This document shows positions 8,480-51,637 of a stretch of 64,000 nt of DNA, one piece after another. Where the stretch lies: positions 1 to 64,000 of the IMG/VR virus record IMGVR_UViG_3300028653_000015, one strand, 5' to 3'. The DNA is from a virus (Duplodnaviria; Caudoviricetes). Position numbers and translations under genes: made by a program. The notes below the pieces were generated by a model. It was given only the letters and a program-made list of their open reading frames with translations, made no database searches and was not told the DNA's origin. Positions within the stretch are counted from its first letter, which is position 1; the number at the start of each line of letters is the position of its first letter.

Positions 8480-8506
8480 AAAAACAGGGCTCTAGTAGGG
8501 TATAAG
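8480..8506 (+). promoter_or_regulatory. Phage-specific promoter motif, copy 1
   Basis: AAAAA-cagggctctagta-GGGTATAAG; intergenic, upstream of ORF 8596. Confidence 0.65.
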
Positions 8507-8595
8507 TATATTGATCCAGAAGACCTAGCCCAGTTGGGTTGGCTTCTACAAACTAGGCCGACCTGTAATTGGGCGACCCCTACAAGGAGAGCATC

Positions 8596-9033
8596 ATGAA
8601 AACCCCATCCGAAGAGACCGAAAGGACCGAGAGCACAGAGACCAAGACCACCCACCACAGCAAGGGAGCTGAGCCTGCGATCTTCCCCAGCGACAAGGAA
8701 CTTGCAGCCCATGGCTTCTTCCAACGTGGCGGCAACTGGGGAGTAGGGATGATCCAGGATTTCAGGAACATCCGCCTTGCCCCCGCTGGTGACAAGTCGT
8801 ACCACTTCTTCGCTGGTTCAGCCAAGGCAGTTTTCTACATAACGGCCGCTGAAGGTGCCTACAGCATCGGCAAGTGGTGCCTGGCAAAGCTTGCTGCCAG
8901 GAAAGCTGCTGCGAAATTGGCAAGCAGGCTGACTGGGTTGGAGGTAGGGGACTCTGCTGAAGTGTCAATGACAGCTACTGCAGCATCGTACTGCGACCGT
9001 GGCTGGATTCAGAAGTTCAGGTCCTCGCTGTAG
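8596..9033 (+). CDS. Hypothetical protein (start ATG 8596)
   Basis: CCCCTACAAGGAG RBS, identical to that of ORF 9302; downstream of promoter copy 1. Confidence 0.55.
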   Translation: MKTPSEETERTESTETKTTHHSKGAEPAIFPSDKELAAHGFFQRGGNWGVGMIQDFRNIRLAPAGDKSYHFFAGSAKAVFYITAAEGAYSIGKWCLAKLAARKAAAKLASRLTGLEVGDSAEVSMTATAASYCDRGWIQKFRSSL

Positions 9034-9189
9034 GACCTCACAAGATTCTCCTCGTGGTCTGCTCTGGGCTCGGGCGAAAGCCTCGGGGGTCAAACCAGGG
9101 CAGGCCACAGGGGGTTATGCGCCCTCTGTCCAGCAGAGAAGAACTGGGCTACTGCATAGGGAGCGTTCGGCATCCTGTGCGGCGCCTTC

Positions 9190-9214
9190 GAAGAACCCAT
9201 ATGGGTTCTTCTTT
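9190..9214 (+). terminator. Intrinsic terminator
   Basis: Perfect palindrome GAAGAACCCATATGGGTTCTTC followed by TTT, immediately before promoter copy 2. Confidence 0.6.
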
Positions 9215-9220
9215 AGCTGC

Positions 9221-9247
9221 AAATTAGGTACCCCAGTCGGGTATAAG
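9221..9247 (+). promoter_or_regulatory. Phage-specific promoter motif, copy 2
   Basis: AAATT-aggtaccccagtc-GGGTATAAG upstream of ORF 9302. Confidence 0.65.
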
Positions 9248-9301
9248 AATATTAGATCAAGGAAATCTAACCCCAGATTTAACCCCTACAAGGAGACAGT
9301 C

Positions 9302-9652
9302 ATGTTGAATGCTGGAGATCGTGTACGCTGCAAACGTTATGTGGAGCTCGGGTCAGGCAATGAGATCTTCCAAGCGGGAGACATTGTTTGGATCAAAGAG
9401 ATTGTATGCAACACGTTTGTACGTGTGTCCGGCACTGGTGACAAGCTTGGTTACATTGGTCTTGGACTGGTAGAGGACTTCGAACCTGCTCCGATCTCTG
9501 ACCGACCGGCCATCACTCTGGAGCAAGCCTACGGCCGATACTTTGGCAGACTGCCTGAGGAGTCCAGGAGAGAGCTGGCAGAACTCGACTCAACAAATCT
9601 GATGGACCTGGCCATGCATCTACAGCCGGAACTTGACTGTAAGATCGTTTGA
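9302..9652 (+). CDS. Hypothetical protein with SH3-like N-terminus (start ATG 9302)
   Basis: AAGGAG RBS; MLNAGDRVRCK...GDIVWI pattern. The upstream part of the 8999 ORF call is structured non-coding sequence. Confidence 0.55.
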   Translation: MLNAGDRVRCKRYVELGSGNEIFQAGDIVWIKEIVCNTFVRVSGTGDKLGYIGLGLVEDFEPAPISDRPAITLEQAYGRYFGRLPEESRRELAELDSTNLMDLAMHLQPELDCKIV

Positions 9653-9686
9653 TTCCGGACACAGGCGCTCGAAAGGGCGGACCTGT

Positions 9687-9745: not shown

Positions 9746-12700
9746 TCAGAAGCTGTAATTCTCCATAAGGCCGCTGTCCTGCATAGGTGCAAAGATGTCT
9801 GGACGTGGTCTCTCTATGCAAGATGCCAACAAGCACAGAAGCATAGAGTGGAATGCATCATCCGTCTTTCCCGGCGGCTTCTTGTACTCGTTCATCCTGA
9901 GTCTCTCGTTGTGCTCGGTGAAGATGTTGAGGATGTCTGTACCATGTGGGTCCTGGTAGTCCTCCCACCTGGGCAAGTCTATCTTCTTTGCCTTCAGAGC
10001 ATTGAACCCATCGCTCATTACCTCTGTACGATGGCACATCCAGCGACGCAGGTTTGGCTCCCAATAGATCTTCTTTTTTTGCCTAGGATTGTACTGGTAC
10101 TTCATTACCTTGTTGGCGCCGAAACGCTTGATGAGCTTGTCGTTCTGATAGAAACCACCACCGTAGTCTACACCTATGATCTTAACGTGTACCTGAGACA
10201 ACATCTGCGTGAGTAGGTCCAGCTGCCGTTCTGGGTCTAGGTCTTGCCCAGTAAATCGATGACACCAGAAGATGGAGAAGTTGCCTGTGCCGAAGTATCC
10301 ACCAAATGAAACGTGAGTGAAGCTGGCGTTCTCTCCAGGACCCCAGTCCACTCCAGCATAGATGGACATACCCTGCGCTAGTCTACGAAAGGACTCTATG
10401 TCACCCAGTACGATCTCAGGCTTGCACACAGCCTGCAGTTGAGCTCGGGTGATTGGTCGTACACCGGAGTCATAGGACCTACCAAGCTTCTCATTCATGA
10501 ACTGGGAACGGGAGTATTGCTCTTGGGCTACTAGTACCTCTTCCCAGTCTACCCAGGGGACCATGATCTGAGGAATGCGGTATCCCTCGAAGGTAACCTT
10601 GTCCTTGTTGTCCTCCCGCATGGGGTTCATGGCAGCCCACTGTGCCATGGGATGCCGTGCGGTTATAGACTCCCCACACTTGTCACAGATGAGCCCCGTA
10701 GACCCTATGTTCTTCTCCGTTAGAACATTCCAATGCCAGGTACTCGAGTCACTGGGTAACCCATGCCGCTCACAGGGTACTACCCACTCGTTCTGTGAGG
10801 AGAACTCAGACCAGTAGAATTCTATGGTGTTATCTACTGACTTGGGTGTGCCTGAGTACAAGAATAGCTTGTAGCTAGAGTGGAAGGCACACTGCTCGAT
10901 GACTGGGATGTTATCGATCAAAACGTCTTGAAGCTCGTCGATCAGTACCATGTCTGCAGGAATACCACGAACACGGTCTGCAGTTAGATACGCATAACGA
11001 AGTCTGATCTGAGAGTAGTTGATAAACTTCTTGAAGAAGACAGCCTGGTTGATCTTAGCTGAGGTGTAGGACCTCAGCATGGGGGACGCATCTATGACAT
11101 CCTTGATGCGGTCATTGGAAAAGACCTTCGCCTGTTCCGCTGAAGGAGCTACGTACAGGGACCTGAAGTTGTTGGTGAGGGCTGAGTAGCAGAGCAGCCG
11201 GTTGCCCAGTGTAGTCGAGTTGTGTGTGATGAGTCCATCTACCACGAAGCTGTCAGTACCATCCACAGTGATGTCATAACAATCCTGCTCTCCCACCTCT
11301 TCGATACTCACTATCTCATCCCAGTACAAATCCGTGCTCAGGTGTTGAGCAAGGGCAGATGTTTTATCTTGATCAAATCTTGTGTCTGATCTGAAGAAGT
11401 CTACATACTGTTCAAGTTTGTCATGACTCAACAAGTACTTAGGTTTCTCCCTAAGTCCGGCAGATCTTAGGGATGGTTGTGGTACGTAGGGCCCGCTGCG
11501 GAAGCCGTTTCTAGACCTGTGTATGATAGCTATATCCTCCACAATACCAGCCGGGTACACATCCCTGTTGGAGTTAGTATCTACGTCGATGATTGGAATG
11601 TCCTCTGTCTTTCCAAGAGCACCAATGTCTTCTATGAATCTGACAGCCCCAGCTTGTGTTTCTATCCGCAGCTTGTACGCCCACTTGTCAGTACCTTTGT
11701 ACAATGTGGGTTTCCATCTACGTGTACTGGAAGGAATGCCAAACTTCCATAGAAGACGCTGCACATCTTTGATCAAGTGCTCAGAAATAGAATCGTACTC
11801 CAGGTGGTACGATGAATCTTGCAAACTTGCATGGCCATCGCCGGCCCATAAACGATTGATGAATAGGGCTGTTTGTCTTTGATCTAATCCCCACACAAAG
11901 TCTGGTACATGCTTGTCTGCAGACAACTCTCCCCAGATACCACACTCCTTCACCAGTTTTAGTACGGCAGACTCTGCATTGAATCGAATACTCCACAGGC
12001 CAGGCTTTCTCTCATTGGGGCTATAGTCATCACCTGCAACCAACTCTAGAAACTCCTGCAAGACTGGCCCTTCGCCCTGAGTAAAGGTACACGTATCTTG
12101 CTCGGGCAAGTACCCTTCTGCAATCATGTACGCTGCTAAGATCACCTTTCTATCTGGCGGAGTAGAAGTACTTGTAAACTCCCCAGCTCTCCGAACTGCC
12201 GCAATATGCTCCTGCTCAGAGAGACCACCAGAGATTGACCAGCCACCCCAGGTGCGCATTGGATGGGTCAATGCCACCACCACAGTATGGCCCTGTCTAG
12301 TCTTGATCTTTACGCAAGTCTTTCTAAGTTTTGCAGACTTCCAAGTTACTGATCCTATTTGTGTATGCGCACCATCAGGAGACATGCCTACTACTTTGTC
12401 TCCTACACAAATCTTCTCTAGGGGTGTTACACCGCCGTCTTCCATAGAAATCATGCTTGCTGCGAGACAGCATTTCTCTACCTGCCGGCCGCAAAGCATG
12501 AGAACTTTGTTTGCAGGCGTATCATATATCTTACGCAGGTACTCACGACCGGTAAATGAGAAGTCACCTATCCTACCCGCTTCAGGAACTCGAATCGCCG
12601 TCTCTGCGAAGTCGGATGGAGATACACCAAGCATCTCTGTAGAGGTAAGAGCACTAGAGGGGTCTACTTCTTCAGGCTCCTCGTCTATACCAAAGTCTAC

Positions 12701-12826
12701 AGCCTCGCCACCCTCATCATAATCAAAGATAGGTTCGACTATTCCATGATCATCAAAACAGTATGAGAGTGGAATGGTGTGTGCAGATCTAAGAAGTTCA
12801 GCCTCTGCCAGTGTGATTGTGGCCAT
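9746..12826 (-). CDS. terL: Terminase large subunit with intein
   Basis: Spliced Walker A CGRQVEK|STT, Walker B VLIDELQD, YSGTP motif, nuclease acidic motifs AGVDWG / GVDYGGG / DDAFH, and a CERH...CDKC insert as in gpA-type terminases. Confidence 0.85.
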   Translation of the reverse strand: MATITLAEAELLRSAHTIPLSYCFDDHGIVEPIFDYDEGGEAVDFGIDEEPEEVDPSSALTSTEMLGVSPSDFAETAIRVPEAGRIGDFSFTGREYLRKIYDTPANKVLMLCGRQVEKCCLAASMISMEDGGVTPLEKICVGDKVVGMSPDGAHTQIGSVTWKSAKLRKTCVKIKTRQGHTVVVALTHPMRTWGGWSISGGLSEQEHIAAVRRAGEFTSTSTPPDRKVILAAYMIAEGYLPEQDTCTFTQGEGPVLQEFLELVAGDDYSPNERKPGLWSIRFNAESAVLKLVKECGIWGELSADKHVPDFVWGLDQRQTALFINRLWAGDGHASLQDSSYHLEYDSISEHLIKDVQRLLWKFGIPSSTRRWKPTLYKGTDKWAYKLRIETQAGAVRFIEDIGALGKTEDIPIIDVDTNSNRDVYPAGIVEDIAIIHRSRNGFRSGPYVPQPSLRSAGLREKPKYLLSHDKLEQYVDFFRSDTRFDQDKTSALAQHLSTDLYWDEIVSIEEVGEQDCYDITVDGTDSFVVDGLITHNSTTLGNRLLCYSALTNNFRSLYVAPSAEQAKVFSNDRIKDVIDASPMLRSYTSAKINQAVFFKKFINYSQIRLRYAYLTADRVRGIPADMVLIDELQDVLIDNIPVIEQCAFHSSYKLFLYSGTPKSVDNTIEFYWSEFSSQNEWVVPCERHGLPSDSSTWHWNVLTEKNIGSTGLICDKCGESITARHPMAQWAAMNPMREDNKDKVTFEGYRIPQIMVPWVDWEEVLVAQEQYSRSQFMNEKLGRSYDSGVRPITRAQLQAVCKPEIVLGDIESFRRLAQGMSIYAGVDWGPGENASFTHVSFGGYFGTGNFSIFWCHRFTGQDLDPERQLDLLTQMLSQVHVKIIGVDYGGGFYQNDKLIKRFGANKVMKYQYNPRQKKKIYWEPNLRRWMCHRTEVMSDGFNALKAKKIDLPRWEDYQDPHGTDILNIFTEHNERLRMNEYKKPPGKTDDAFHSMLLCLLASCIERPRPDIFAPMQDSGLMENYSF
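11219..12472 (-). mobile_element. Intein (418 aa) with LAGLIDADG homing endonuclease, inserted in the terminase Walker A
   Basis: Starts CCLAASMISMEDG; block B THPMRT; LAGLIDADG-like AAYMIAEGYL and INRLWAGDGH; LLWKFGI; ends YDITVDGTDSFVVDGLITHN followed by Ser. Confidence 0.9.
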
Positions 12827-12837: not shown

Positions 12838-12865
12838 AAAAATAGTTCGAAAGATCGGGTATAAG
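12838..12865 (+). promoter_or_regulatory. Phage-specific promoter motif, copy 3 (no protein gene follows)
   Basis: AAAAA-tagttcgaaagatc-GGGTATAAG, divergent from the terL start. Confidence 0.6.
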
Positions 12866-12871
12866 TACTTT

Positions 12872-13050
12872 GACAGGAATGGAAGATAGCCATCACACCA
12901 TTCTTCGCAGAACCCACTCGGTAAAAAAATAGAAACAACAACGAGTAAGGGATCTTAGCAATCATAACACGTGGTTGGTAGGGTGTGTAGGCAGGTGTTA
13001 CTGCTTGTGGTGGCCTTTACTCGTAAGCCTAGGCCGGCAGAGCCGGCCAA
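12872..13050 (+). ncRNA. Candidate structured small RNA (~180 nt)
   Basis: Follows promoter copy 3 in a 240-bp gap. Five consecutive hairpins with G-U pairs that work on the plus strand; no ORF with a good RBS. Confidence 0.4.
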
Positions 13051-13066
13051 CAATTACCCCACAATT

Positions 13067-36197: not shown

Positions 36198-36199
36198 AC

Positions 36200-38938: not shown

Positions 38939-39063
38939 ACCACAACCTGTTGTGGGTGGGGTAGGGGTACACCACAAGCAGTTGGGTTCATCAACACGTC
39001 GTTGACAGCCTCACTGCTTGGGGTACTCTTACCCTTTCCACTTCTGTTGCAAGGAGAGATCAA

Positions 39064-39381: not shown

Positions 39382-39384
39382 CCT

Positions 39385-40899: not shown

Positions 40900-40902
40900 G
40901 TC

Positions 40903-41970
40903 GTGGCACTACGTGAGGTCGTACTAGAATACGCTACTAAGTATCTGCGGTACGTAAGAACTTCAGGAACGGTTAACGTAGGTGGTCCTTGCCCTTTCCA
41001 TAAGGGAGGGCAAGAACGCACACCATCCTTCTACATCAATACCCAGAATGGGTTGTACTTCTGCCATGCGTGTGGCGAGAAGGGTACGTTCGCGCAGTTC
41101 ATGAAGCTAATGGGGGCTAGTGCTGAGAAGGTAGACCTAGTTCTCGAGCTAGCCAGACAAGAGCAACCGAAGAGACCGCCTAAGGCATCAGACCTTCATG
41201 GTGACCACTACCTGAACGAAAGCTTGTTGGGTGTCTTTGACTATTGCCCCGTAAAGCTGGTAGAAGATGGATTCGATGAGGTACTACTCCACAAAATGGA
41301 TGTGGGGTTTGATAAAGAGTACGAACGGATCACATTTCCTCTCCGCGACTTGTATGGGAATTTGGTGGGGTTTTCAGGAAGAACGGTGACGGATGGTTAC
41401 CCGCGATACTTGGTATACAAGAAAGAAGACCTGAAGAGGTTTTGCTCAGACAGACCAGAGGACATGGCCAAGTATGATTCGTATGACATCAAGAATCATG
41501 AGCATCTGTGGAACATGCACAACGTGTTCCCCAGTCTGTTCTATACCGAGCTGGATACTGTGATAGTGGTTGAGGGATTCAAGGCGTGTCTATGGATGAT
41601 ACAGCATGGGTTCGAGAATACCGTAGCTTTGCAAGGGAGCCGAATGACGGCAAAACAAGAGGCCATACTTTGCAAGTTTGGTGGGAGTGTGCTCTTCTTT
41701 CTAGACAACAACAAGGCAGGAAGGGATGGTACTAATGACGCAGGACCAAGACTAAAGTGTAGAGGACAGCAGTTCAAGGTTTGCTCCTACCCGGACTCTG
41801 TAGAAGAAGGAGCACAGCCAGACAATCTCACACAAGAAGAAATACAGAACAGTCTGGACACAGCAAAAACACTGAATGAATGGAGAACTGAAAATGGAAT
41901 ACTCCCCAAATCGAAGAATCTCAATAGGGCAAAGAATCCATGGGTACATGGCAACGCACAGCACAGGTAA
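40903..41970 (+). CDS. dnaG: DNA primase (CHC2 Zn finger plus TOPRIM)
   Basis: CPFH...PSF...CHAC, RITFP...VGFSGR, VVEGF, FLDNNKAG. Confidence 0.85.
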   Translation: MALREVVLEYATKYLRYVRTSGTVNVGGPCPFHKGGQERTPSFYINTQNGLYFCHACGEKGTFAQFMKLMGASAEKVDLVLELARQEQPKRPPKASDLHGDHYLNESLLGVFDYCPVKLVEDGFDEVLLHKMDVGFDKEYERITFPLRDLYGNLVGFSGRTVTDGYPRYLVYKKEDLKRFCSDRPEDMAKYDSYDIKNHEHLWNMHNVFPSLFYTELDTVIVVEGFKACLWMIQHGFENTVALQGSRMTAKQEAILCKFGGSVLFFLDNNKAGRDGTNDAGPRLKCRGQQFKVCSYPDSVEEGAQPDNLTQEEIQNSLDTAKTLNEWRTENGILPKSKNLNRAKNPWVHGNAQHR

Positions 41971-43039
41971 GAGCAGCGGTTTCAAACGAAGCAGAGGCTC
42001 TTCCCTCAACATCAGGTGGGGTGCTAGGTGGAGGCCGCCGAAGGCACCAGCCACAGCTAAGATCCGACTGATACCAGGGAACTACAAGGGACTGGATGGA
42101 AACGAGTACTCATACTTCCAGTACGTTGAGTTCTACAGCGTGAGGGCCAACAGGAACTTCATCAGTTCCGCTGATTGGAAGATCGATGATGAGGGTAAGC
42201 TCATCAAGGTTGGTGGGAATTGCCTTGGTCAAGATGCAATGGATACGGAGATTGCAGAGGGTATAGACAGGGACCACCGTTCGATCTCTCGTAGACTTAT
42301 GCATGTGTTCAATGCAATACACCTGGCATGGTACCACCTGGTACCAGTAGAACGTGGAGATGGCTCACCAGCCATCTATGAGAATGGCAAGAACAAAGGT
42401 GAGCAGATACTGCAGAAGGTACCTTGTGATGGTCGCAAGTGTGACATGTGCCAAGAAAAACTCCCAAAGACATTTGGCAAGAAGTCACACTGGAGTCTGG
42501 GGTTCAATCACCTCGTGAATCTGTCCGGGTTCATTGACGAGATTGAAAAGGACTGTTCAGAGTGTGGTGGCAAGGGCACCATAGAGAAGGTTACCTACGA
42601 CTGCGGTGGATGTGGCACACCAATCGTTGTGTGTGCTGACTTCGATCTCCGGGATGAGAAGCAGGCAAATGAGTACGACAGGTTGATTGGTAGACCATAC
42701 GTCTGCAAGTGTGGCCTTACTGATATACCTGTGGCTCAGCTTGAGTGCACTGGCTGCAGAGACCCCAAGCCACTGGACATCTTTGACTGTGACATAGAGG
42801 TCAAGAGGCAAGGTGAGGGTACTGCCTCCACAGTACAGGTTGCTCGATGGGTGCCTACCGTGCTTACAGATGAATTGAAGGAAATGGCCAAGCCGTGGAA
42901 CTTCAGTGAGATCTTTGCACCTGACCCATTGAACATACAAGCAGACATCCTGAAGTGCAGGAATCCATATGCTACCGGCGGTGCCGAAGCCGGTAAAGAA
43001 CATGCCCGTGAATACGGTACAGCCGACTACAACAAGTAG
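41894..43039 (+). CDS. Probable ssDNA-binding protein (gp32-like) with several Zn ribbons (start ATG 41894)
   Basis: KIRLIPG and DIEVKRQGEG..T motifs; CSEC, CGGC, CKCG, CTGC; located between primase and polymerase. Confidence 0.55.
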   Translation: MEYSPNRRISIGQRIHGYMATHSTGKSSGFKRSRGSSLNIRWGARWRPPKAPATAKIRLIPGNYKGLDGNEYSYFQYVEFYSVRANRNFISSADWKIDDEGKLIKVGGNCLGQDAMDTEIAEGIDRDHRSISRRLMHVFNAIHLAWYHLVPVERGDGSPAIYENGKNKGEQILQKVPCDGRKCDMCQEKLPKTFGKKSHWSLGFNHLVNLSGFIDEIEKDCSECGGKGTIEKVTYDCGGCGTPIVVCADFDLRDEKQANEYDRLIGRPYVCKCGLTDIPVAQLECTGCRDPKPLDIFDCDIEVKRQGEGTASTVQVARWVPTVLTDELKEMAKPWNFSEIFAPDPLNIQADILKCRNPYATGGAEAGKEHAREYGTADYNK

Positions 43040-43052
43040 TGACTGAGTCTGT

Positions 43053-43094
43053 AGTCCCACCCTCCCTTCTGCCGGGGAGGGTGGGATTTTCTTT
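43053..43094 (+). terminator. Intrinsic terminator
   Basis: AGTCCCACCCTCCC / GGGAGGGTGGGATT stem followed by TTCTTT. Confidence 0.8.
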
Positions 43095-43117
43095 GTAGGC
43101 ACACTCAGGAGAATTCT

Positions 43118-45067
43118 TTGCAGCGCATACTACAGTTGAAACCGCCGGTTACCTACGTGGATAACCCCGAAGAGATGATGAAATTCGTCAAACACGTACA
43201 AGCCACCAAGGAGTGCGCACTAGATACTGAGACGACAGGACTCAACAGGTGGAAAGATCATGTGGTTGTGTGGTCTGCTTGTCCATCTGAAGACGCCCGA
43301 TACTGCTTTACCCGGCCTATGCTTCGCATCTACAACGAGGAGCTAGCCCAAGATACCAGCCTCACCTGGTACTTCACCAACCAAACATTCGATTTCTGCA
43401 TGCTTGCAAATTCTGGTGTCCTACCTCCTATGGGTGACTCCTATTGCACGCTGGCCATGGACTGGCTACACAACGAGAACCGACAAGGACGCCACGGTCT
43501 GAAGGACACCACGCTGGACTACACAGGTGCCGGCATGGAAGAGTTCAATACCGCTTTCCCAGGTCTGAAAGAAGAGAGTACGGAGGTACGCATACTCAGA
43601 GCTCTGGAAGTAGATTTCCGTAGGGCGATCAGTTATGCGTCTGATGATGCGTACGCAACCTTCAGAGTCTTCCATATTCTCCGCGACTTCCTAGACAAGG
43701 AAGAGATGGTTTATGAGAAGTCCTTGTGGGAGTACTTCCAAGAAGTAGAAATGCCATTCACTAGGGTCTTGTTCAATATGATCCGAAGAGGGATTATGAT
43801 TGATACAGGGTACCTAGAAGATCTGAAGCCGCAGCTGCATGGAAATATACAGCTGCTAGAGCGGAAGATTGTGAAGATGGCCGGTAAGGAGCTGAATCTC
43901 AAGAGCACTAAGCAGCTGGCATGGTTGCTCTTTGAGAAACTTGGTCTTAAACCGATCAAAAAGACAAAGAAAGGTGGCAAGCCATCTACGGATGAGGACA
44001 CTCTACAGCGGTACGCTGATGATGGTATAGAGATATGCAAGGAGATCATAAAGCTTCGTAAGCTCTCAAAGTTCAACAGCACCTACGTCGAGGGTCTGTC
44101 CAAGTGGTTAGATCCTGTGGGTCGTGTGCACCCCACACTCACCCAGCACGTGACAGTTACTGGACGGTTGAGCTCTGTAGATCCGAATCTCCAGAATATT
44201 CCGCGACCTGACAACGACGTGTTCCATATCCGTGAAGCATTCATTCCCAAAGAAGGTTATGCCTTCTGCGTCTTTGACTACGAGCAACTGGAGATGAGAA
44301 TACTGGCTCATATTTCTGGTGAGCCTAACATGATCCAAGTGATCAATAACGGGTGGGATATTCACACAGGCACTGCCAGCCTGATGTACAACTACCCGTA
44401 CGAAGAAATCATAGCTGCTGTGAAGAGGAAGAAGTCAGCATCCAAAGAAGGCAGCAACATCAAGCTCACGGAACTCGAGCTAGCGATGTGCTTTGGTAGA
44501 CAAGCCAGTAAGACAATAGGCTTCGGACTGCTGTTTGGTGAGGGGCCGAAGAAGCTGGCCAATACCCTAGGCGTGTCTATACCAGAGGCAAAGAGACTGA
44601 TAGAGAAATACTTCGCACCATATCCCGGTGTTCGAGAGCACATCAACAATGTGCACAGACTGATCAGAGAGGATTGTGTATACCGCACACTTATGGGAAG
44701 GCCCCGTAGATTCCCAGAGATGTCTCAGATAGGTGATAGACCCTATTGGGATTTGACCGGTGGTGAGAAGCTAGTTGTATCGCAGAGTGAGCGTCAATCG
44801 GTCAACTTCGGTACGCAAGGTGGGGCTGCTGACATACTCAAGAGGGCTATGATCTTGTGTGAGTTCGATCCACACCTCCGAGATCTAGGTGTGGAGATGC
44901 TACTTCAGATTCACGATGAGTTGATTTTCGAAGTGCCTATCGAATCCGTACAGGAGGCTATGCCAGCCATCAAACAACTTATGGAGCATCCACTTGGTTA
45001 CGAACTGGCAGTTCCATTGGCTTGTGATGGAGGTTCTGGAAACTCCTGGATGTCCGCGAAAGGCTAG
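43118..45067 (+). CDS. polA: Family A DNA polymerase with 3'-5' exonuclease (no 5'-3' exonuclease domain)
   Basis: ALDTETTG, YASDDA, TGRLSS..PNLQNIP, DYEQLEMRILAH, R..SKTIGFGLLFG, QIHDEL. Confidence 0.95.
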   Translation: MQRILQLKPPVTYVDNPEEMMKFVKHVQATKECALDTETTGLNRWKDHVVVWSACPSEDARYCFTRPMLRIYNEELAQDTSLTWYFTNQTFDFCMLANSGVLPPMGDSYCTLAMDWLHNENRQGRHGLKDTTLDYTGAGMEEFNTAFPGLKEESTEVRILRALEVDFRRAISYASDDAYATFRVFHILRDFLDKEEMVYEKSLWEYFQEVEMPFTRVLFNMIRRGIMIDTGYLEDLKPQLHGNIQLLERKIVKMAGKELNLKSTKQLAWLLFEKLGLKPIKKTKKGGKPSTDEDTLQRYADDGIEICKEIIKLRKLSKFNSTYVEGLSKWLDPVGRVHPTLTQHVTVTGRLSSVDPNLQNIPRPDNDVFHIREAFIPKEGYAFCVFDYEQLEMRILAHISGEPNMIQVINNGWDIHTGTASLMYNYPYEEIIAAVKRKKSASKEGSNIKLTELELAMCFGRQASKTIGFGLLFGEGPKKLANTLGVSIPEAKRLIEKYFAPYPGVREHINNVHRLIREDCVYRTLMGRPRRFPEMSQIGDRPYWDLTGGEKLVVSQSERQSVNFGTQGGAADILKRAMILCEFDPHLRDLGVEMLLQIHDELIFEVPIESVQEAMPAIKQLMEHPLGYELAVPLACDGGSGNSWMSAKG

Positions 45068-45071
45068 AACA

Positions 45072-45260
45072 ATGAACAAAAAGCTAAGTGAGATACAGGC
45101 ATTCGTAAAGGCTGAGATGGCCAAAATAGACACTGACGAAAGGTATCATAACGAACCGGCACTGTTGCAAGTAAATGCACCCCTAACTTTGATCCAGCTT
45201 GAAATGAGTGCCAAGATGTTAATCCTAAAGAAGGTAAAGGCACTTCTAGACCAGCCATGA
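45072..45260 (+). CDS. Small hypothetical protein (start ATG 45072)
   Basis: Fills the gap between polA and HU; ATGA-coupled to HU. Confidence 0.5.
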   Translation: MNKKLSEIQAFVKAEMAKIDTDERYHNEPALLQVNAPLTLIQLEMSAKMLILKKVKALLDQP

Positions 45261-45736
45261 CCTACCAGCAATTGATCGTGCACGTTGCAGAAGGCTCGAG
45301 CTACACAAAGCGTGAACTACGTAAGATCTTACGCCTTGTTAGCTCCGCCATCTGCAACGAGCTTGCTGGTGGTGGAGAGGTTGTGTGGAACGGTCTTGGT
45401 GCACTCAAGAACGTACCTAAAGCCCCACACCTCGTACGCAATGTCTTCACAGGAGAGCACTACAAAACTAAACCTAGTAGACGAGTCAAGTTCACTCCAA
45501 GTGCAAAGGTTAGGAAGCAGGTGAGAGCATCTATACACCTGTTCCAGGAACCTGACTTGGTTCAGCGCTATCTACCAAAGGAGAACAGTGGAAAAATACG
45601 CAGTACAGATAGACCCAACAAAAGTGGACAAGGAGAAGGAGAAGAACGCAGAGAAGGGGAAGACGTTGGACGACCCCAACTGCAATGTACCCCTAGATCC
45701 AATCGAGGGCTCAAAGCCTTTCGAAAAGGAAGCTGA
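45257..45736 (+). CDS. HU/IHF-family DNA-binding protein
   Basis: MTYQQLI..VA...TK.E..., GGEV...GLG.L, RNVFTGE, VKFTPS..VR. Confidence 0.8.
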   Translation: MTYQQLIVHVAEGSSYTKRELRKILRLVSSAICNELAGGGEVVWNGLGALKNVPKAPHLVRNVFTGEHYKTKPSRRVKFTPSAKVRKQVRASIHLFQEPDLVQRYLPKENSGKIRSTDRPNKSGQGEGEERREGEDVGRPQLQCTPRSNRGLKAFRKGS

Positions 45737-45764
45737 GAAAGGCGCAAATGCCAAAGCCAAGTAA
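45588..45764 (+). CDS. 58-aa ORF overlapping the HU 3' tail in another frame
   Basis: AAGGAG-aaca-GTG start; MEKYAVQIDPTKVDKEKEKNAEKGKTLDDPNCNVPLDPIEGSKPFEKEAEKGANAKAK. Confidence 0.55.
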   Translation: MEKYAVQIDPTKVDKEKEKNAEKGKTLDDPNCNVPLDPIEGSKPFEKEAEKGANAKAK

Positions 45765-47091
45765 GACACCAGTCAAGAAGCCTACGTACACAGGGCCTGT
45801 GTACGTAGACCCCAATTCTATCCCGCGAGCTGATGCAAATGAGCTTCTGGATGTTCTCCAAGCCACGCTTGGCGGCGATGGTGTAATCCTGCAGCAGGGT
45901 ATAGAGGTAGAAGGTCGCTTAGATCTAAGACGACCAAGTGGAATCACCCAACTAGATATCGCGTGTGGTGGTGGTCTGCCAGCTGGTGGACTTTCTCAGA
46001 TAGATGGGGCTGATGGGGTGGGAAAGAACCTGCTGATGAACTACTACTTTGCCAAGCAGCAGTCCATTCATGGAGCCGCCACCAACCTGGCCATGGTGTG
46101 CCTAGAGAGTGGTTATGACAAGCTGTTTGGCAGGGCGGTAGGAGTCAAGGTAGCACTATCTCCATACGAGATTGAGGCAGAGGGCAGGCGTAGGCGCATG
46201 AAGGGAGAGCCTGAGCTCACAGTTGAGGAAGTAGCAGAGCTACAGTCTCAGGTAGGCAACTTCCACATCTTCCGTGGTGCCGCATCAGAAAAGATACTGG
46301 AGGCTGTGGTGCACTGTGTGTCATCCAACTCCTATCAGATCATAGGCATTGACTCTTGGGATGCCATGCTCACCGCAGCAGAGGAGGGTAAGGAGCTCGA
46401 GGACAACGCGAAAGTAGCCGATGCTTCGGGTATACAGACTAGATGGATGCGCAAGGTGTTTGGTGCCTTATCTCCCCAAAAGATCTGCCCGGACTGCTTT
46501 GGTAGGCCACTGGGATTCAAGCAGTATGGCAAAGGGAACTTCGACTACATCTGCCCAGAAAGCAAGTGCGGTTGGAAGGGTAAGAAACCCTACATGTGGG
46601 AGAACGAAACTACCCTCATAGGCATTCGGCAGATACGCGCCAACCTGAATAAGATGGGCATGCATGCTCGGGAGTACAAAGTCGGAGGTGCATATGCTCT
46701 TCGTCACGGCAAGATGATCGATATTGCCCTCAGGCGAGGCAAACCGATAGAGCTCAGCAATAACAACATCGGAAAAGAGATCAACTGGGAGCTTACAAAG
46801 GGCAAGGCAGGTACACACGAGGGTCTGAAAGGAGCATACGAATACTACTACGCTCCGCCAGGCATCGACCTGTCTTCAGATCTAGTCAACTACTGCTCGG
46901 CCAACAACATCATCCAGTATGGTGGACCAAAGGTTGGGTTCTACGTGACGTCTATGGATGGTAGTGAACAGGTTAAGTTGGGGACCAAGGAAGAGATGCA
47001 AAGGCGGGTAGAGGAAGACAAAGACATTGAGCACCTTCTTCGTGTTCTCAGCTTCAGAGAGGCCGGGCTAGGGAGAGTGCGGTTCAAGTGA
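45748..47091 (+). CDS. recA: RecA/UvsX-like recombinase with Zn-ribbon insert
   Basis: SG...LDIA.GGGLP.G, GADGVGKN, IGIDSWDAM, IRQIR, GGAYALRH; CPDC...CPESKC insert. Confidence 0.85.
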   Translation: MPKPSKTPVKKPTYTGPVYVDPNSIPRADANELLDVLQATLGGDGVILQQGIEVEGRLDLRRPSGITQLDIACGGGLPAGGLSQIDGADGVGKNLLMNYYFAKQQSIHGAATNLAMVCLESGYDKLFGRAVGVKVALSPYEIEAEGRRRRMKGEPELTVEEVAELQSQVGNFHIFRGAASEKILEAVVHCVSSNSYQIIGIDSWDAMLTAAEEGKELEDNAKVADASGIQTRWMRKVFGALSPQKICPDCFGRPLGFKQYGKGNFDYICPESKCGWKGKKPYMWENETTLIGIRQIRANLNKMGMHAREYKVGGAYALRHGKMIDIALRRGKPIELSNNNIGKEINWELTKGKAGTHEGLKGAYEYYYAPPGIDLSSDLVNYCSANNIIQYGGPKVGFYVTSMDGSEQVKLGTKEEMQRRVEEDKDIEHLLRVLSFREAGLGRVRFK

Positions 47092-47630
47092 ACACCATCA
47101 AATTAGAGCTGGCTGTACGATATGTAGGGTTCGGAAAGTCCTGTAGCAGTTGCGGACAGGTGAGGGAAACCACACACTATGCCCTCCAGAATACAGTGAG
47201 TGGTGATGTGCTACAGGACTTCCGACTCTGCGATAAGTGTCAAGACAAGGGGCACGTGATACGATTTGAAGTGGTGGGCTCTGCTGACACCAATAGAGCC
47301 AGAGGAGCGCGTAGAGTACGAATATCCAGAGAGCTGGAGAGGGGCCTTGCCAGGGATGTAGGAGGCAAGGTGCAGCCAGGATCTGGAAACCAAGATGATA
47401 AAGACGATGTGCGGGTGTTCGGAGAGTGGCGATTCGAACACAAGTACACGGACAACTGCAAGGACTACATACTGCACGCTTCAGATCTAATGGCGGTGGT
47501 ACGACATGCCAAACTGTCTGGAGAGTGGCCAGCATTCGTTCTGAACTTCCGCAAGCTCGGTAGGAAGTTTGTCACAATTCCATACGAGCTATTCCTCGAA
47601 CTAATGGAGAGACTGCGTGCCAATAGATAA
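47088..47630 (+). CDS. Zn finger plus PD-(D/E)xK nuclease (Holliday-junction resolvase-like)
   Basis: CSSC...CDKC; E...A...GG...PGSG...DDV.....FEHK. Confidence 0.7.
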   Translation: MNTIKLELAVRYVGFGKSCSSCGQVRETTHYALQNTVSGDVLQDFRLCDKCQDKGHVIRFEVVGSADTNRARGARRVRISRELERGLARDVGGKVQPGSGNQDDKDDVRVFGEWRFEHKYTDNCKDYILHASDLMAVVRHAKLSGEWPAFVLNFRKLGRKFVTIPYELFLELMERLRANR

Positions 47631-48498
47631 GCTGATGAGCGTAAAAGATCTGAGCACCTGCTCAAAGAAGGTGTTCCAAGAAATAACAGTAGTGAACAGA
47701 ATCGAATCTCTGCTGGAAGACATGAATGTCAAGGCAAGTTCGATGTCTGATCAGTTAATGATTGGAGACATGGTACGCATGACTCATGTGTTCCATGCCT
47801 CCGAAATTGGAAGAACCACAGGTAGGTCGCCTAGTGGCAAGTACCCTATGGGTTGTGCTAGAGCCCTATACTACAGTTACATAAATGCACCAGCTGAGGG
47901 TTCTTGGACTCCCAGAAACAGACGCATACTAGACACTGGTACTGCAATCCACAGTCAGCTACAGATGTACTTAGCGGAGGTAGCAAAGAAGAGGAAGAAG
48001 ACAGAGTCGTTCGAGAAGGAAGCTCTCATCTCTCCAGAGACAAACCCAGTAGCCGATGTCTTAGATCTATCCGGACATACTGATGGCATCTACAACATCA
48101 CTCTTCCGCACTTGCAAGTACGTTTTGGAATAGAAATCAAATCCATCAATGATGCTGGATTCAAGGCCACCAAATCAGTACACCCAGAGCACGCAGTACA
48201 AGGTACCATCTATCAAGCATGCTTGGATTTGCCGGTTATGCTGTTCCTGTACTACAGCAAGAACGATTCCAACATGGCCGAGTTCCTTCAGGTATTTGAT
48301 CCCAACATATGGGAAGAGATCAAAACAAAAATCAACTGGGTTAGGGAGTGTGTGTACAAAGGGGTAAGCCCCCAACAAGAGATAGGGTTTGGTTGCAAGA
48401 CCTGCAAGTACAAAGCGATCTGTAAGCCACCACAAAGGACAAGAAGGCCCATGGCAGTGAATGCATTCAGAACAAAGGGAGGTATGGCATGCGGATAA
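47617..48498 (+). CDS. Cas4/RecB-like PD-(D/E)xK exonuclease
   Basis: HASEIG..C.R, GTAIH, GHTDG, EIKS, H..Q...Y, C-terminal CKTCKYKAIC. Confidence 0.8.
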   Translation: MPIDKLMSVKDLSTCSKKVFQEITVVNRIESLLEDMNVKASSMSDQLMIGDMVRMTHVFHASEIGRTTGRSPSGKYPMGCARALYYSYINAPAEGSWTPRNRRILDTGTAIHSQLQMYLAEVAKKRKKTESFEKEALISPETNPVADVLDLSGHTDGIYNITLPHLQVRFGIEIKSINDAGFKATKSVHPEHAVQGTIYQACLDLPVMLFLYYSKNDSNMAEFLQVFDPNIWEEIKTKINWVRECVYKGVSPQQEIGFGCKTCKYKAICKPPQRTRRPMAVNAFRTKGGMACG

Positions 48499-49127
48499 TC
48501 AGACCTGGTGTAGAGCTAGTATCCTGCTCTACAAATCCAGAGAAATTGATCGAGCGTATGGGAAGAATTTGCTACAAGAGTGAGGACATGATCACAGAAG
48601 ATTCTGCCCCCAAGTTCATCAGAATGATCATGCAGCGGGGTCATGAATCTGTACTAGAGCATGCCGTTGCTAGCTTCATCATCACAACAGACCGTGGGGT
48701 TACCCACGAAATAGTACGGCACAGGCTTGCTAGCTACTCTCAGGAGAGCACAAGATACTGTAACTTCTCGCAGGATCGTTTCGGGGGAGAGATTACTGTT
48801 ATCGAACCACCCGGTCTAGGTGAAAGTATGGCTTGGGGTTTCTGGCATAGCGCTGTAGCAGTAGCTGAAGCCCAGTACTTAGCGATGCTCAATGAAGGCA
48901 TGTCACCACAGATTGCTCGATCTGTTCTTCCGAATTGCCTGAAGTCTGACATAGGGATGACAGCGAACTTTCGAGAGTGGCGTCACTTCCTCAAGCTGAG
49001 GACTAGCCCAGCAGCACATCCGCAGATGAGAGAAATAGCGAATCTGATAGCACAAATACTATGCGTCCTGTCTGCAACATGCTTCGGGGAATTCTTGGAG
49101 AAGACTGATGCCAATACTGGAGGCTAA
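48489..49127 (+). CDS. thyX: Flavin-dependent thymidylate synthase
   Basis: GHESVLEH, RHRLASYSQESTRY, ARSVLPN, NFREWRHFLKLR, AHPQMR. Confidence 0.95.
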   Translation: MRIIRPGVELVSCSTNPEKLIERMGRICYKSEDMITEDSAPKFIRMIMQRGHESVLEHAVASFIITTDRGVTHEIVRHRLASYSQESTRYCNFSQDRFGGEITVIEPPGLGESMAWGFWHSAVAVAEAQYLAMLNEGMSPQIARSVLPNCLKSDIGMTANFREWRHFLKLRTSPAAHPQMREIANLIAQILCVLSATCFGEFLEKTDANTGG

Positions 49128-49731
49128 CTACGAACAAGGCATGGCTGCCTATGAACAAGCAGCCGACAAGGGTGATGCGGAACTGATCAAGATGGGCTTC
49201 CCTAGGTCCCAAAGACCTATGGTAACTGTCGAGGGTGTGCAGCAGTTCGCAGATAGACCTACCCTACCTGAACGTCTCAGCGACTTGTCGATGTCAGACC
49301 TGCAGGACTTGCTTGGCTGGTTCACTGCCTGGCACTCGTATGCTGTGGAGCAGGTACCTCCAATGCGCATCATGAGAAACACAACAGAAGCTGCTCGCGA
49401 CTTTGCGTGGGCTAAGATCCGAAAAGAAAAGAAGGGTACAGTATCTGATAAGAACGATAACACCCGTACGGATATGAGGTACGTCCAGGCAAACACCGCC
49501 TATGAGACCTCAGACTACATGTACAATATGATCAAGGCCATAACAGATGGCCTGTACAGAGAGATTGAAACCATATCCAGAGCCATCTCAGGACTGGAAC
49601 AAAAATTCGGTGCAGAAGGACATCGTTTTTCAGGAGAGCGTCGCGGTGTTGGTGCACACTCTGGCCCCTCCTTCAAAACACCGTTCAAAGCTGATGTCAT
49701 GGCACGATTCCGTACAGGGACCAAGCGATGA
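49108..49731 (+). CDS. Helical hypothetical protein (UvsY-like by shape and context only)
   Basis: Long predicted helices in the recombination cluster. Confidence 0.5.
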   Translation: MPILEANYEQGMAAYEQAADKGDAELIKMGFPRSQRPMVTVEGVQQFADRPTLPERLSDLSMSDLQDLLGWFTAWHSYAVEQVPPMRIMRNTTEAARDFAWAKIRKEKKGTVSDKNDNTRTDMRYVQANTAYETSDYMYNMIKAITDGLYREIETISRAISGLEQKFGAEGHRFSGERRGVGAHSGPSFKTPFKADVMARFRTGTKR

Positions 49732-50237
49732 GCTTGGTGATCCCAAAATCGAAGAAAGTGCAAGAGGTTAGACATGTAGCAGGACTACATGTGTGGGTAC
49801 CCTTCCTGCCGCCATCCTCAAATGGCATCTACGTGAACATACCGGGCCACGGTAGAACTCTATCTACCCAGGCTCGGGCGTTCAAGGTGAAGGCCATGCG
49901 AGAGATTCAACAGAAAGGTAGGGTGGCCTTTCTGCAACTGAAACCCAATGTACCCTACCAACTGAACCTCACAGTATTCTTCGATCATATTGAAATCAAA
50001 AAATCAGCAAAGGGAAACAGGTACATAGTTAGAGACTTGAGCAACGTAGTGAAGTTGATAGAAGACACGGTGTCAGAGGCAGTAGGGATAGGAGATGAGC
50101 ACAACTTCAGACTGGTTCTAGAGAAGCACTGTGATCCTGAGAACCCCGGTATGTATGTAGACCTAATTCAAATATCTGAGAAGAGTGTAGGTCTGACAAA
50201 GAAGGAGTACGATCTTGGTCACACCACTAGTACCTAA
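49728..50237 (+). CDS. rusA: RusA-like Holliday junction resolvase
   Basis: PPSSN.IY and RDLSNVVKLIEDTV.....GDE. Confidence 0.75.
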   Translation: MSLVIPKSKKVQEVRHVAGLHVWVPFLPPSSNGIYVNIPGHGRTLSTQARAFKVKAMREIQQKGRVAFLQLKPNVPYQLNLTVFFDHIEIKKSAKGNRYIVRDLSNVVKLIEDTVSEAVGIGDEHNFRLVLEKHCDPENPGMYVDLIQISEKSVGLTKKEYDLGHTTST

Positions 50238-50595
50238 AGTCGATGCAAACGACTTCTCACGTACGAACATCACAGAGTTGATTACTCTGTGCCAGCATGC
50301 CGGTATCCTTGGAGCACACAGGGGCATACCGCGCAAAACACTTATCGCACTGCTGAGAGGAGAGACAACAGCCAGAGCAGTAGACATGCCGGACCCTGTG
50401 GACAACTACAGGGAGATGATGCTCTATCTACAAGAGTCCATGCCAGACATTATCAAAGGGCAACTGAAGTGCAGTACTGATCACTACTTCTGCCCGGCTT
50501 GTCCGCCAGCAAGAGTGGTAGCATGTGCACTCGTGAACTTTGATGAAGGGTTCAGAGAGCAAATCTTGAAAGAGATGAAGATGGGGCAAGGATGA
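50215..50595 (+). CDS. Small protein with Rho-N/HeH-like helices and Cys cluster
   Basis: FSRTNITELITLCQHAGI...RKTLIALL; C....CPAC.....AC. Confidence 0.5.
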   Translation: MVTPLVPKVDANDFSRTNITELITLCQHAGILGAHRGIPRKTLIALLRGETTARAVDMPDPVDNYREMMLYLQESMPDIIKGQLKCSTDHYFCPACPPARVVACALVNFDEGFREQILKEMKMGQG

Positions 50596-50834
50596 ACCTC
50601 AAGAGTTGTGTAAGCTGTGACCGGCTTACCACCTGTCACGTCGTAGATGCAGACAAGTTGGAAATGGGGTATTGTTGCGATTCATGGGCCAAGACAAGCT
50701 CAAGTATCTTGTCAGGCCGCCTTCAAATTGCTAAAAGGTTCGGACCTTGGGCACTCAGGTACGAAACCATTCGACTGCAACCAGTAGGTGAGAGTGCTGG
50801 ACCAAAAATCAGGAGACGACACAAAAATGGCTGA
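50592..50834 (+). CDS. Small Cys-rich protein
   Basis: CVSC....C...CC; ATGA-coupled. Confidence 0.5.
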   Translation: MNLKSCVSCDRLTTCHVVDADKLEMGYCCDSWAKTSSSILSGRLQIAKRFGPWALRYETIRLQPVGESAGPKIRRRHKNG

Positions 50835-51387
50835 CACGTACACTCGCGAAGATCTAGGAAAACTGAAGCGCTCTGAGCTGCGGGCCTTGGCTGTAAGTGA
50901 CAAGGTGGGCATGACGTTCCAAGAAGCAAGCACCGCACGATCTGAAGACATGGTGGAGATTATCCTCAAGAAGCTCGGAGGAGCAGGAGCTAAGAAGGGA
51001 GCACCCGCTCCCAAGGGAAAGCCAGCTGGTAAGCCAGCACCTACCCCAGAACCCGAACCGGAAGAGACACCAGAAGAAGAGGCCCCTGCGGAAGAAGAAG
51101 CTCCTGCAGAAGAACCCGAAGAAGTGCCGGAAAAGAAGAAGGGTGGCAGGGCCCTGAAGGAAGAGAATACGGTCATCCAACGGGTAGATACAATCGGCCT
51201 GTTGGTCGAGGAAACATCCAAGAACGTGGTAGGTCTGACTGAGAAGTTGGGTGCCCTGCAGAAGCAGTCCTATGTTGCACTCAGCTTGCTCAAACTGCTG
51301 TTGGGTGCCAACATGGAACCTGATGAGGTGGACAAGGCTATCGACGAAGCCTCCACAGAATTCGATGGTGGCGAGGGAAAAGAGTAA
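50827..51387 (+). CDS. Rho-N/HeH-like N-terminus, acidic linker, coiled coil (start ATG 50827); ends at a slippery site
   Basis: AGGAG RBS; YTREDLGKLKRSELRALA...EDMVEIIL; EEAPAEEE linker; ends GAG GGA AAA GAG TAA. Confidence 0.7.
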   Translation: MADTYTREDLGKLKRSELRALAVSDKVGMTFQEASTARSEDMVEIILKKLGGAGAKKGAPAPKGKPAGKPAPTPEPEPEETPEEEAPAEEEAPAEEPEEVPEKKKGGRALKEENTVIQRVDTIGLLVEETSKNVVGLTEKLGALQKQSYVALSLLKLLLGANMEPDEVDKAIDEASTEFDGGEGKE

Positions 51388-51566
51388 AGGGGATAGACCC
51401 CATACCTCCGTCTGCTGAAGACGTAGTCACATTCAGCTTCAGCAGCCTAGAGAGAATGAGTGTCAAAGAACTTCTGATGGTGATCGAGTCTGTTGTATCT
51501 GACCGACCACCACCAGGAGCTACTAAAGAGCAGCTCCTGCACTTCATTCATCTCAACTCGATCTAG
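51375..51566 (+). other. Candidate programmed -1 frameshift site and 61-aa C-terminal extension
   Basis: In-frame G_GGA_AAA at 51375-51381. The -1 frame is open from 51381 to 51566 (RVKGIDP...LERMSVKELL...TKEQLLHFIHLNSI) and stops just before the terminator. Confidence 0.65.
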
Positions 51567-51574
51567 TTTCGAGT

Positions 51575-51607
51575 AGAAGGGAGCCCACCGGGGGCTCCCT
51601 TTCTTTT
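51575..51607 (+). terminator. Intrinsic terminator ending the replication block
   Basis: AAGGGAGCCC / GGGCTCCCTT stem followed by TCTTTT. Confidence 0.85.
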
Positions 51608-51610
51608 GCC

Positions 51611-51637
51611 AAAATACATACCCTACGAGGGTATAAG
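51611..51637 (+). promoter_or_regulatory. Phage-specific promoter motif, copy 6
   Basis: AAAAT-acataccctacga-GGGTATAAG immediately after a terminator, upstream of ORF 51683. Confidence 0.65.

Follow-up and report, generated by a model that had tools for sequence, protein, structure and literature searches.

The stretch of DNA studied here, referred to below as the window, comprises the opening 64 kb of an IMG/VR record (IMGVR_UViG_3300028653_000015; G000) that is linear, measures 79,115 bp and has a completeness estimate of 43%. The full genome is that of a tailed phage of roughly 180 kb, of which the remaining 57% is unsequenced. We analysed a short element that recurs on its plus strand, the word GGGTATAAG preceded by an A-rich tract, which had been put forward (hereafter, the original prediction) as a novel bipartite early promoter that heads six transcription units and is cognate to the phage's own RNA polymerase (RNAP). 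The GC content of the window is 50%, and no near-identical DNA was found in the phage collection. Judged by library matches of the window proteins, the minus strand carries the morphogenesis genes; besides the large terminase, its products include baseplate-hub-like, tail-fibre-like, protease-like, weakly portal-like, and minor-head- or peptidase-like proteins. On the plus strand are small open reading frames (ORFs) without an assigned function, together with a replication block (32018-51387) that encodes a helicase and a family A DNA polymerase. Since the morphogenesis genes are on the minus strand, and the replication block and small ORFs on the plus strand, the earlier division into a ‘virion’ and a ‘non-virion’ strand is reasonable. 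Three of the minus-strand genes are referred to below.

9746-12826, minus strand: large terminase gene with an intein; Hint/intein splicing and LAGLIDADG domains occupy residues ~116-536 and precede the gpA-type ATPase domain.
18061-24240, minus (virion) strand: fused β-β′ RNAP gene, a single ORF of 2059 amino acids (aa), assigned by RNAP domain matches and by alignment of the clamp-helix region.
56826-61598, minus strand: Kelch-repeat gene (1590 aa), assigned by a domain match.

Plus-strand copies of the motif

In the window, GGGTATAAG is present five times (8498, 9239, 12857, 31986 and 51629), always on the plus strand, against an expectation of 0.31; none of 100 shuffles reached five copies, and the fivefold occurrence that had been described is confirmed. 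When one mismatch was allowed, 12 occurrences were found compared with 10.06 expected, which is the chance level, and the signal therefore lies in the exact word. The full record adds a sixth exact copy on the plus strand, at 67493, and none on the minus strand; TATAAG alone occurs ten times on the plus strand and once on the minus strand of the record. Together with the variant CGTTATAAG at 24324, which likewise stands as reported, these make seven sites in the record, all of them outside the best gene models, that is, intergenic. We regard the repeated motif with high confidence as a promoter class. The six copies within the window are as follows.

8480-8513, plus strand: copy 1; A-tract 8480-8484, GGGTATAAG 8498-8506, predicted start G 8513; heads ORF 8569-9033; ortholog in locus L007.
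9221-9254, plus strand: copy 2; AAATT 9221-9225, GGGTATAAG 9239-9247, predicted start A 9254; heads ORF 9302-9652; orthologs in loci L007 and L040.
12838-12872, plus strand: copy 3; A-run 12838-12842, GGGTATAAG 12857-12865, predicted start G 12872; no ORF follows; elements invariant in the five-way alignment A2.
24306-24339, plus strand: copy 4, the variant; AAATT 24306-24310, CGTTATAAG 24324-24332, predicted start A 24339; divergent from the RNAP gene; heads 24378/24605-25615.
31969-32001, plus strand: copy 5; AAAAA 31969-31973, GGGTATAAG 31986-31994, predicted start A 32001; heads the replication block 32018-51387; ortholog in locus L014.
51611-51644, plus strand: copy 6; AAAAT 51611-51615, GGGTATAAG 51629-51637, predicted start G 51644; heads 51683-52309.

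The sites share a layout that consists of G(C)AAAWW, 13-14 nucleotides (nt), GGGTATAAG, a mostly A/T 6-mer and a purine. An AAAWW tract begins 20-22 nt 5′ of TATAAG in six of the seven sites, as had been stated for the copies in the window; the site at 67493 departs from this rule with AAATC. AAAWW has a background frequency of 0.3-0.5% over all genome positions and 1.3% over intergenic ones. When 32 unfiltered sites of this phage and the fused-RNAP relatives are pooled, with orthologs (not independent) and two to three probable in-gene chance hits included, AAA occupies the −35-like place in 27-28 cases and a purine is found 7 nt after TATAAG in 30, as it is in all seven sites here. In alignments of orthologous sites the spacer drifts, and no change is seen in the A-tract, in GGTATAAG or in the start region. 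In agreement with the original prediction, TTGACA is absent from the −35 position of all seven sites. The last −10 base is G in every one of them, and the base at −15 is G or C and never T, with either GGG or CGT there; GGGTAT is present in six sites and the variant has CGTTAT. An inverted copy of the core lies within the spacer of the 51629 promoter (51617-51635, CATACCC-tacga-GGGTAT) and the site at 9239 has TACCC-cagtc-GGGTA, such inverted copies not being general among the sites.

An ORF preceded by a Shine-Dalgarno (SD) sequence is located 45-150 nt 3′ of six of the seven sites, the one at 12857 having none within 400 nt. The proposal that six transcription units are headed by the motif thus holds for the six sites with such an ORF; the record contains seven sites, however, and that at 12857 heads a non-coding region. 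The site at 9239 falls within a mechanically called GTG ORF, yet an SD-preceded ATG is present at 9302. The small proteins encoded 3′ of the promoters gave no Pfam match, and their PHROG matches were weak or absent. For the variant at 24324, G[GT]TATAAG is kept at the orthologous place 5′ of the RNAP gene in seven of ten related loci, the exceptions being L009 with CGACATAAG, L020 with GGGTACAAG and L021 with nothing clear. The leader that follows this promoter (24339-24400, plus strand) contains two adjacent hairpins, cagaagtaa...ttacttctg and ctgtgtc...gacacag, which have equivalents in relatives.

Four further plus-strand features adjoin the copies.

9190-9211, plus strand: terminator-like hairpin, 9-bp stem followed by UUCUUCUUU, directly 5′ of copy 2; −18 kcal/mol, z −4.72.
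51578-51600, plus strand: terminator-like hairpin, GC-rich 9-bp stem followed by UUUCUUUU, closing the replication block directly 5′ of copy 6; −18.5 kcal/mol, z −2.3.
8519-8531, plus strand: downstream 5′-leader element GAAGACCTAGCCC; related 13-mers at 9261-9273 and 51650-51662.
12872-13062, plus strand: candidate small RNA of ~190 nt, structured and non-coding, 3′ of copy 3 and between two minus-strand genes.

The two hairpins, each with its U-run, bear out the observation that two copies (9239 and 51629) come right after intrinsic terminators. The shared downstream element fared differently. The three 13-mers exist, and TCTAACCC is also found after 67493 (three on the plus strand, none on the minus strand), where a hairpin is inserted between the promoter and TCTAACCC. 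As a loose pattern, RAWCTARCCC, the element was found twice against 0.79 expected, which is not above chance, and its distance from the promoter varies; on these grounds we rejected it as a part of the promoter. Because the distance varies, the 13-mers are more likely to be part of some 5′ leaders. The region at 12872-13062 is conserved in four relatives and folds better than shuffled sequences (z −3.46), with one compensatory change in the first (5′) hairpin and a conserved terminal GGCCGGC hairpin. Covariation support is thin, at one compensatory pair of 32. The region had no Rfam match, and tRNA and Rfam scans of the whole window were also negative. We consider it a candidate small RNA that would be driven by the 12857 promoter.

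The motif in relatives that carry the polymerase

A search with the RNAP identified 16 viral contigs (41-90% identity, 35-67% GC), and in these 16 loci every G[GT]TATAAG outside genes is on the non-RNAP strand. The closest cultured relatives by RNAP (31-34% identity) are the Vibrio phages D69, D148 and D181 and the Salmonella phage Arash, all of ~181-188 kb; Arash is reported to have been isolated on Salmonella Typhimurium. The complete Arash genome has 30 copies of GGTATAAG opposite its RNAP, terminase and structural genes and a single copy on the strand of those genes, compared with 3 and 2 for the reversed-word controls; on the opposite strand, GGTATAAT occurs only twice. Each of the 31 G[GT]TATAAG sites of the opposite strand is followed, at a median distance of 29 nt, by an ORF with an SD sequence. 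The Arash consensus is TGGTATAAG-taaaGTGTAaa, and TGG stands before the core in 18 of the 31 sites.

A similar bias was observed in metagenomic relatives. In three complete genomes with direct terminal repeats (G005, G006 and G007; 172-183 kb), the numbers of G[GT]TATAAG opposite the RNAP gene and on its strand are 33:3, 32:1 and 31:3 respectively. Among the fused-RNAP relatives, the corresponding ratios are 3:0 in G001 (202 kb, 67% GC), 3:0 in G002, 4:0 in G003 and 3:0 in G009; two more, G010 (192 kb; 15:3, controls 7 and 3) and G011 (4:1, controls 3 and 4), are barely over the reversed-word control. In G012 (1:0) and G013 (8:1) the RNAP gene falls outside the recorded part, and strand sense is not scorable. 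Overall, G[GT]TATAAG is mostly opposite the RNAP gene in 11 of the 14 counted genomes or records with this RNAP type (G000, Arash, G001, G002, G003, G005, G006, G007, G009, G010 and G011), the other three being G008, G014 and D69. The −10 words named in the lineage are GGTATAAG, GTTATAAG and GGTACAAG, or there is none. The intergenic, strand-specific enrichment that the original prediction anticipated is therefore found both in the full record (seven of seven sites intergenic) and in relatives (30:1 in Arash). These results support the view that the motif marks a bipartite promoter class, intergenic and specific to the non-virion strand, which tracks the RNAP-bearing lineage over a range of 35-67% GC.

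The form of the RNAP gene varies within the lineage. It consists of two ORFs in Arash, D69 and G005-G007. The single ORF of 2059 aa in the window compares with 2568-2962 aa in several relatives (L007, L015, G009 and G010), where it matches in pieces, which points to inserted sequences (inteins or homing elements, for example) in some of these genes.

Virion-strand promoters and the lineage sigma factor

Promoters of a different kind precede genes on the virion strand. Three were located in the window.

7838-7867, minus strand: σ70-like promoter TTGACA-N18-TATCAT; heads the unit 6873-7817 and beyond; ortholog in locus L007.
31921-31950, minus strand: σ70-like promoter TTGACA-N18-TACTAT; heads 30547-31902 and downstream genes (tail-fibre-like); ortholog in locus L014.
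61639-61668, minus strand: σ70-like promoter TTGACC-N18-TACAAT; heads the Kelch-repeat gene 56826-61598.

Near-consensus σ70-like promoters, mostly with an 18-nt spacer, are also found before RNAP-strand genes in seven related loci (L007, L014, L016, L012, L022, L011 and L021; 35-60% GC), and the RNAP gene of L021 has one immediately ahead of it. In Arash (OQ632216) and D69 (OZ195729), (C)TAAAATA(T) stands ~25-35 nt ahead of the start codons of structural-strand genes, frequently in a back-to-back arrangement with the reverse-complemented GGGTATAAG motif (L024-L027 and L031); TAAAATA has no copy in this phage. The non-structural strand of Arash also has plain σ70-like promoters. These genomes are written in at least two promoter codes.

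Some other elements of the two strands were noted in passing. A conserved TCTGGTAGyyTG element (24240-24330, minus strand) lies ~35-45 nt 5′ of the RNAP start codon in seven of nine aligned relatives. This element is possibly the promoter of the RNAP gene itself, and it has TGGTA in common with the motif as found in Arash. Where the last plus-strand gene ends, a promoter-like site (52283-52310, plus strand; CTGACA-N16-TATAAT, 11 of 12 positions) points into the convergent gap; behind it come an A-run, GGAGGG and an ATG, which could represent a small unannotated ORF. The 3′ end of the tail-fibre-like gene (~29350-29460, minus strand) has collagen-like repeat units GGACCTTCTGGACCAAGT of the Gly-Pro-Ser type, and comparable Gly-rich repeats occur near the end of the record (G000 ~78900-79000, minus strand).

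With respect to the transcription machinery itself, the β′ clamp-helix region of the window RNAP aligns with bacterial β′ (E 1e-44). In bacterial enzymes the β′ clamp-helix is the docking place of sigma region 2. A σ70-family protein of ~230 aa with regions 2-4 is encoded in Arash (gp10, annotated), G001 and G005-G011; that of G001 was first found through a weak Sigma70_r2 match. The family is represented in eight viral-contig loci, and a wider profile detected it in at least 80 contigs, many of 140-226 kb. A sigma-like gene is present in every complete relative examined with this RNAP type (G001, G005, G006, G007, G010 and Arash). When compared with solved SigA, RpoS and RpoD chains, a six-member profile of the family gave E values down to 1.5e-16 across regions 2-4; Sigma70_r3 was matched by six of the six members and Sigma70_r2 by five, and a DPxxGTKLST motif that resembles region 2.2 is conserved. 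The lineage sigma falls under the cut-off of every curated NCBIfam sigma subfamily model. With TIGR02980 (SigB/F/G) the best E value was 1.8e-10, for five of the six members, which is below cut-off and no better than with the RpoD or FliA models.

A study of Arash (PMC10585845) reports that, in virion preparations, the RNAP β subunit was the most detected protein and that β′ and the sigma gp10 were also present. We considered whether the sigma might be autoregulated through a same-strand motif ~325 nt 5′ of its gene in Arash, G005, G006 and G007, and dropped the idea, since these are four close relatives and the motif is located 4 nt before the start codon of a preceding small ORF; the arrangement counts as one weak observation. 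The flanks of 80 sigma loci showed no enrichment of the motif (16 on the same and 8 on the opposite strand, compared with 14 and 12 in controls), as is to be expected because sigma loci sit inside structural blocks.

The enzyme that may read the plus-strand promoter

The plus-strand sites have the properties of a generic bipartite promoter of the σ70 family, namely two conserved elements at fixed spacing, 5′ of genes and on the coding strand. Nevertheless, the motif fails at least one defining element of each of the primary σ70 promoter, the extended −10 promoter and the SigB consensus. In mechanism it would be nearest to promoters of alternative or phage-encoded sigma factors, and in sequence it most resembles those of the SigB/SigF type. 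Given the sigma-type layout, the lineage sigma, the Arash proteomics and the retention of the clamp-helix region, a phage sigma together with the phage core is the most economical reader, and we think it probable that such a holoenzyme reads the motif. According to this model, a gp10-like σ70-family factor of ~230 aa, bound to the phage β-β′ core, would read G(C)AAAWW as a −35-like element, the 13-14 nt spacer, GGG plus TATAAG as the −10 region and the A/T-rich 6 nt that follow, and would initiate at the purine 7 nt after TATAAG. By analogy with Arash, the holoenzyme might be delivered with the virion or made during infection, and the sigma gene of this phage would lie in the unsequenced 57%. 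Every step from the sigma in relatives to a sigma that reads this motif in this phage is one that we infer. The original claim that the motif is the cognate promoter of the phage RNAP is consequently retained in part: the motif tracks the RNAP lineage and departs from the σ70 consensus, but the reader is deduced indirectly and the lineage sigma is likely to be needed. A working orthogonal pair would most likely need the core plus the sigma.

An alternative is that host RNAP with its primary sigma reads the sites as strong extended −10-type promoters and that the phage RNAP serves others. TATAAG is one base from TATAAT, the TATAA core is that of extended −10 promoters (TGnTATAAT), Arash has a TGn-fitting TGG before the core in 18 of 31 sites, Arash-type phages show no strong −35, and the distance to the conserved purine is σ70-like; the plain σ70-like promoters on the same strand of Arash also make host transcription of that strand plausible. 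However, the two −10 bases most critical for σ70 include the T at the last position, and here it is replaced by an invariant G, both in this phage and in relatives, as the scarcity of GGTATAAT in Arash illustrates. Compared with primary σ70 promoters (TTGACA-N17-TATAAT), the −35 TTGACA is missing too, and compared with extended −10 promoters, the G or C at −15 leaves the TG requirement unsatisfied and a −35-like A-tract is present. Because of the invariant G, the lack of TTGACA and the absence of T at −15, a host primary sigma is unlikely as the reader; moreover, perfect TTGACA-N18-TAnnAT promoters on the other strand of the same genome indicate that a host-like code is used elsewhere. Phage sigma factors such as SPO1 gp28 and gp33/34 and T4 gp55 (late promoter TATAAATA) redirect the host core, and the lineage sigma, a regular σ70-family protein with regions 2-4 and the conserved DPxxGTKLST motif, could in principle do the same, leaving the phage β-β′ with another task. 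The likeness extends to a phage-specific code used through a phage sigma-family protein and to the T4-late-like structural strand of Arash and D69. Unlike SPO1 and T4, the present lineage encodes its own β-β′ core, and this phage has no TAAAATA and has σ70-like promoters on its virion strand. That the large RNAP gene is kept with its clamp-helix region, and that RNAP subunits and gp10 were reported together in Arash virion preparations (PMC10585845), makes us consider this redirection of the host core decidedly unlikely.

A sigma could instead be dispensable, with the phage β-β′ recognizing the motif by itself or by means of a non-sigma subunit, in the manner of the phiKZ/AR9-type enzymes of jumbo phages (subject of the review PMC7598289). 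These are likewise multisubunit phage RNAPs, possibly delivered with the virion for early genes. They are split into several polypeptides and lack a canonical sigma, and here β and β′ are fused, match the Pfam RNAP models directly and co-occur with a σ70-family protein. A reader without sigma would fit the failure to find a sigma in the 79-kb record and the near-perfect conservation of a 9-mer, which is typical of phage-polymerase promoters. As against this, the record is only 43% complete, all complete relatives examined have a sigma-like gene, and two elements at 13-14 nt are what sigma regions 4 and 2 read, which renders a sigma-less mode improbable. The resemblance to SigB/SigF-type (group 3 sigma) promoters raises the further question of a host alternative sigma. 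The SigB consensus given in PMC9847131 is GTTTAA-N14(13-17)-GGGTAT, and the sites here share its GGGTAT core in six of seven cases, its spacer in their 13-14 nt and a −35 element that starts with G; in addition, the lineage sigma has the regions (2-4) and the size range (~230-260 aa) of such factors. The differences are a −35 element that reads G(C)AAAWW in place of GTTTAA, an invariant AAG after GGGTAT and a lineage sigma that is under the SigBFG cut-off. The same core is also found in a Salmonella phage, and enterobacteria are not known to have SigB/SigF. A stress sigma would be an unlikely basis for all non-virion transcription, in that these promoters would serve the bulk of it and not a stress regulon, and we judge reading by a host SigB/SigF-group factor to be very improbable. 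Finally, the motif might not be a promoter and might act as a different intergenic signal of one strand, for instance where a regulator binds or RNA is processed. Its placement behind terminators and at divergent junctions, a distance of 16-150 nt to the SD-preceded ORF in 35 of the 37 sites that have one, its −35/−10-like geometry and the conserved purine at the expected start leave very little room for this explanation, the least credible of those considered.

Several observations weigh against the promoter being a lineage-wide signal read by the phage holoenzyme. G008 (4:4) and G014 (0:0) show no enrichment of the motif despite having the RNAP and a sigma-like gene, and D69 lacks an enrichment of GGTATAAG (6:3; controls 4 and 7) and uses tttGTTATAAGtaatatGTA or the word GTTATAAG in its place. 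Within the window, the conserved plus-strand gene at 7861-8430 has no copy of the motif; this 189-aa ORF is divergent from the σ70-like promoter at 7867-7838, is conserved in six related loci (44-94% identity) and has no Pfam or PHROG match, and it was ruled out as a sigma candidate (hhalign probability 0.07). Six-frame searches of the 79-kb record with Sigma70_r2 and Sigma70_r4 did not reveal a sigma, tblastn of the record gave no match for Arash gp10, gp196 or gp9 or for the G001 sigma, and a profile hidden Markov model of the sigma family gave a best E value of 5.6 against all six-frame ORFs of G000 and the RNAP-flanking loci L007-L022. Since no sigma gene was found in the record or in the RNAP-flanking loci of close relatives, the link to a sigma is made for this phage by extrapolation. 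The phage sigma profile also fits primary sigmas about as well as SigB/F, and the RNAP gene is on the opposite strand, amid units with conserved TTGACA-N18-TAnnAT promoters, an arrangement that fits more than one assignment of enzymes to promoter classes. The Arash authors allow, besides packaging for early transcription, carry-over of abundant proteins (PMC10585845). Furthermore, the runs that contain this sequence are DNA runs labelled rhizosphere metagenome, and no RNA run is listed.

Two terms of the original prediction call for revision. ‘Novel’ is too strong for the architecture, a GGGTAT core with a 13-14 nt spacer being a SigB/SigF-type layout (PMC9847131). ‘Early’ is not established, as the case for a virion RNAP rests on mass spectrometry of one distant relative whose authors allow carry-over (PMC10585845); we do not accept it mainly because there are at least two promoter codes, which could be matched to enzymes and time classes in more than one way. 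No description of the motif or of any promoter for these phages was found in the literature, the word ‘promoter’ being absent from the main text, supplements apart, of PMC10585845 and of PMC7481178. The latter concerns the mReC lineage of RNAP-encoding Caudovirales, which resembles the present one in comprising metagenomic tailed phages whose β/β′ are found by standard profiles. The motif is apparently undescribed and is conserved far beyond this record, and it represents a variation on sigma-type recognition rather than a new principle.

Bacterial-like multisubunit RNAPs of phages are known mostly from metagenomes, and the motif provides a concrete, conserved promoter for one such lineage. 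It is tied to a phage sigma-family protein, and a cultured phage with a laboratory host has ~30 copies of the same code, which makes it directly testable. It also allows non-virion transcription units to be annotated in many uncultured phage genomes of ~180 kb. More tentatively, and as a possibility that we do not favour at present, the lineage may possess a self-contained machine, in which a β-β′ core and its own sigma are packaged in the virion and use a private code (A-tract, N13-14, GGGTATAAG) that host σ70 is unable to read. If this were so, two codes would be used on the two strands, a private one for the non-virion genes and a host-like or T4-late-like one for the virion genes, and the polymerase, sigma and promoter would form a portable orthogonal set. 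Should the three components be orthogonal to the host, they would offer a new expression tool of the multisubunit kind.

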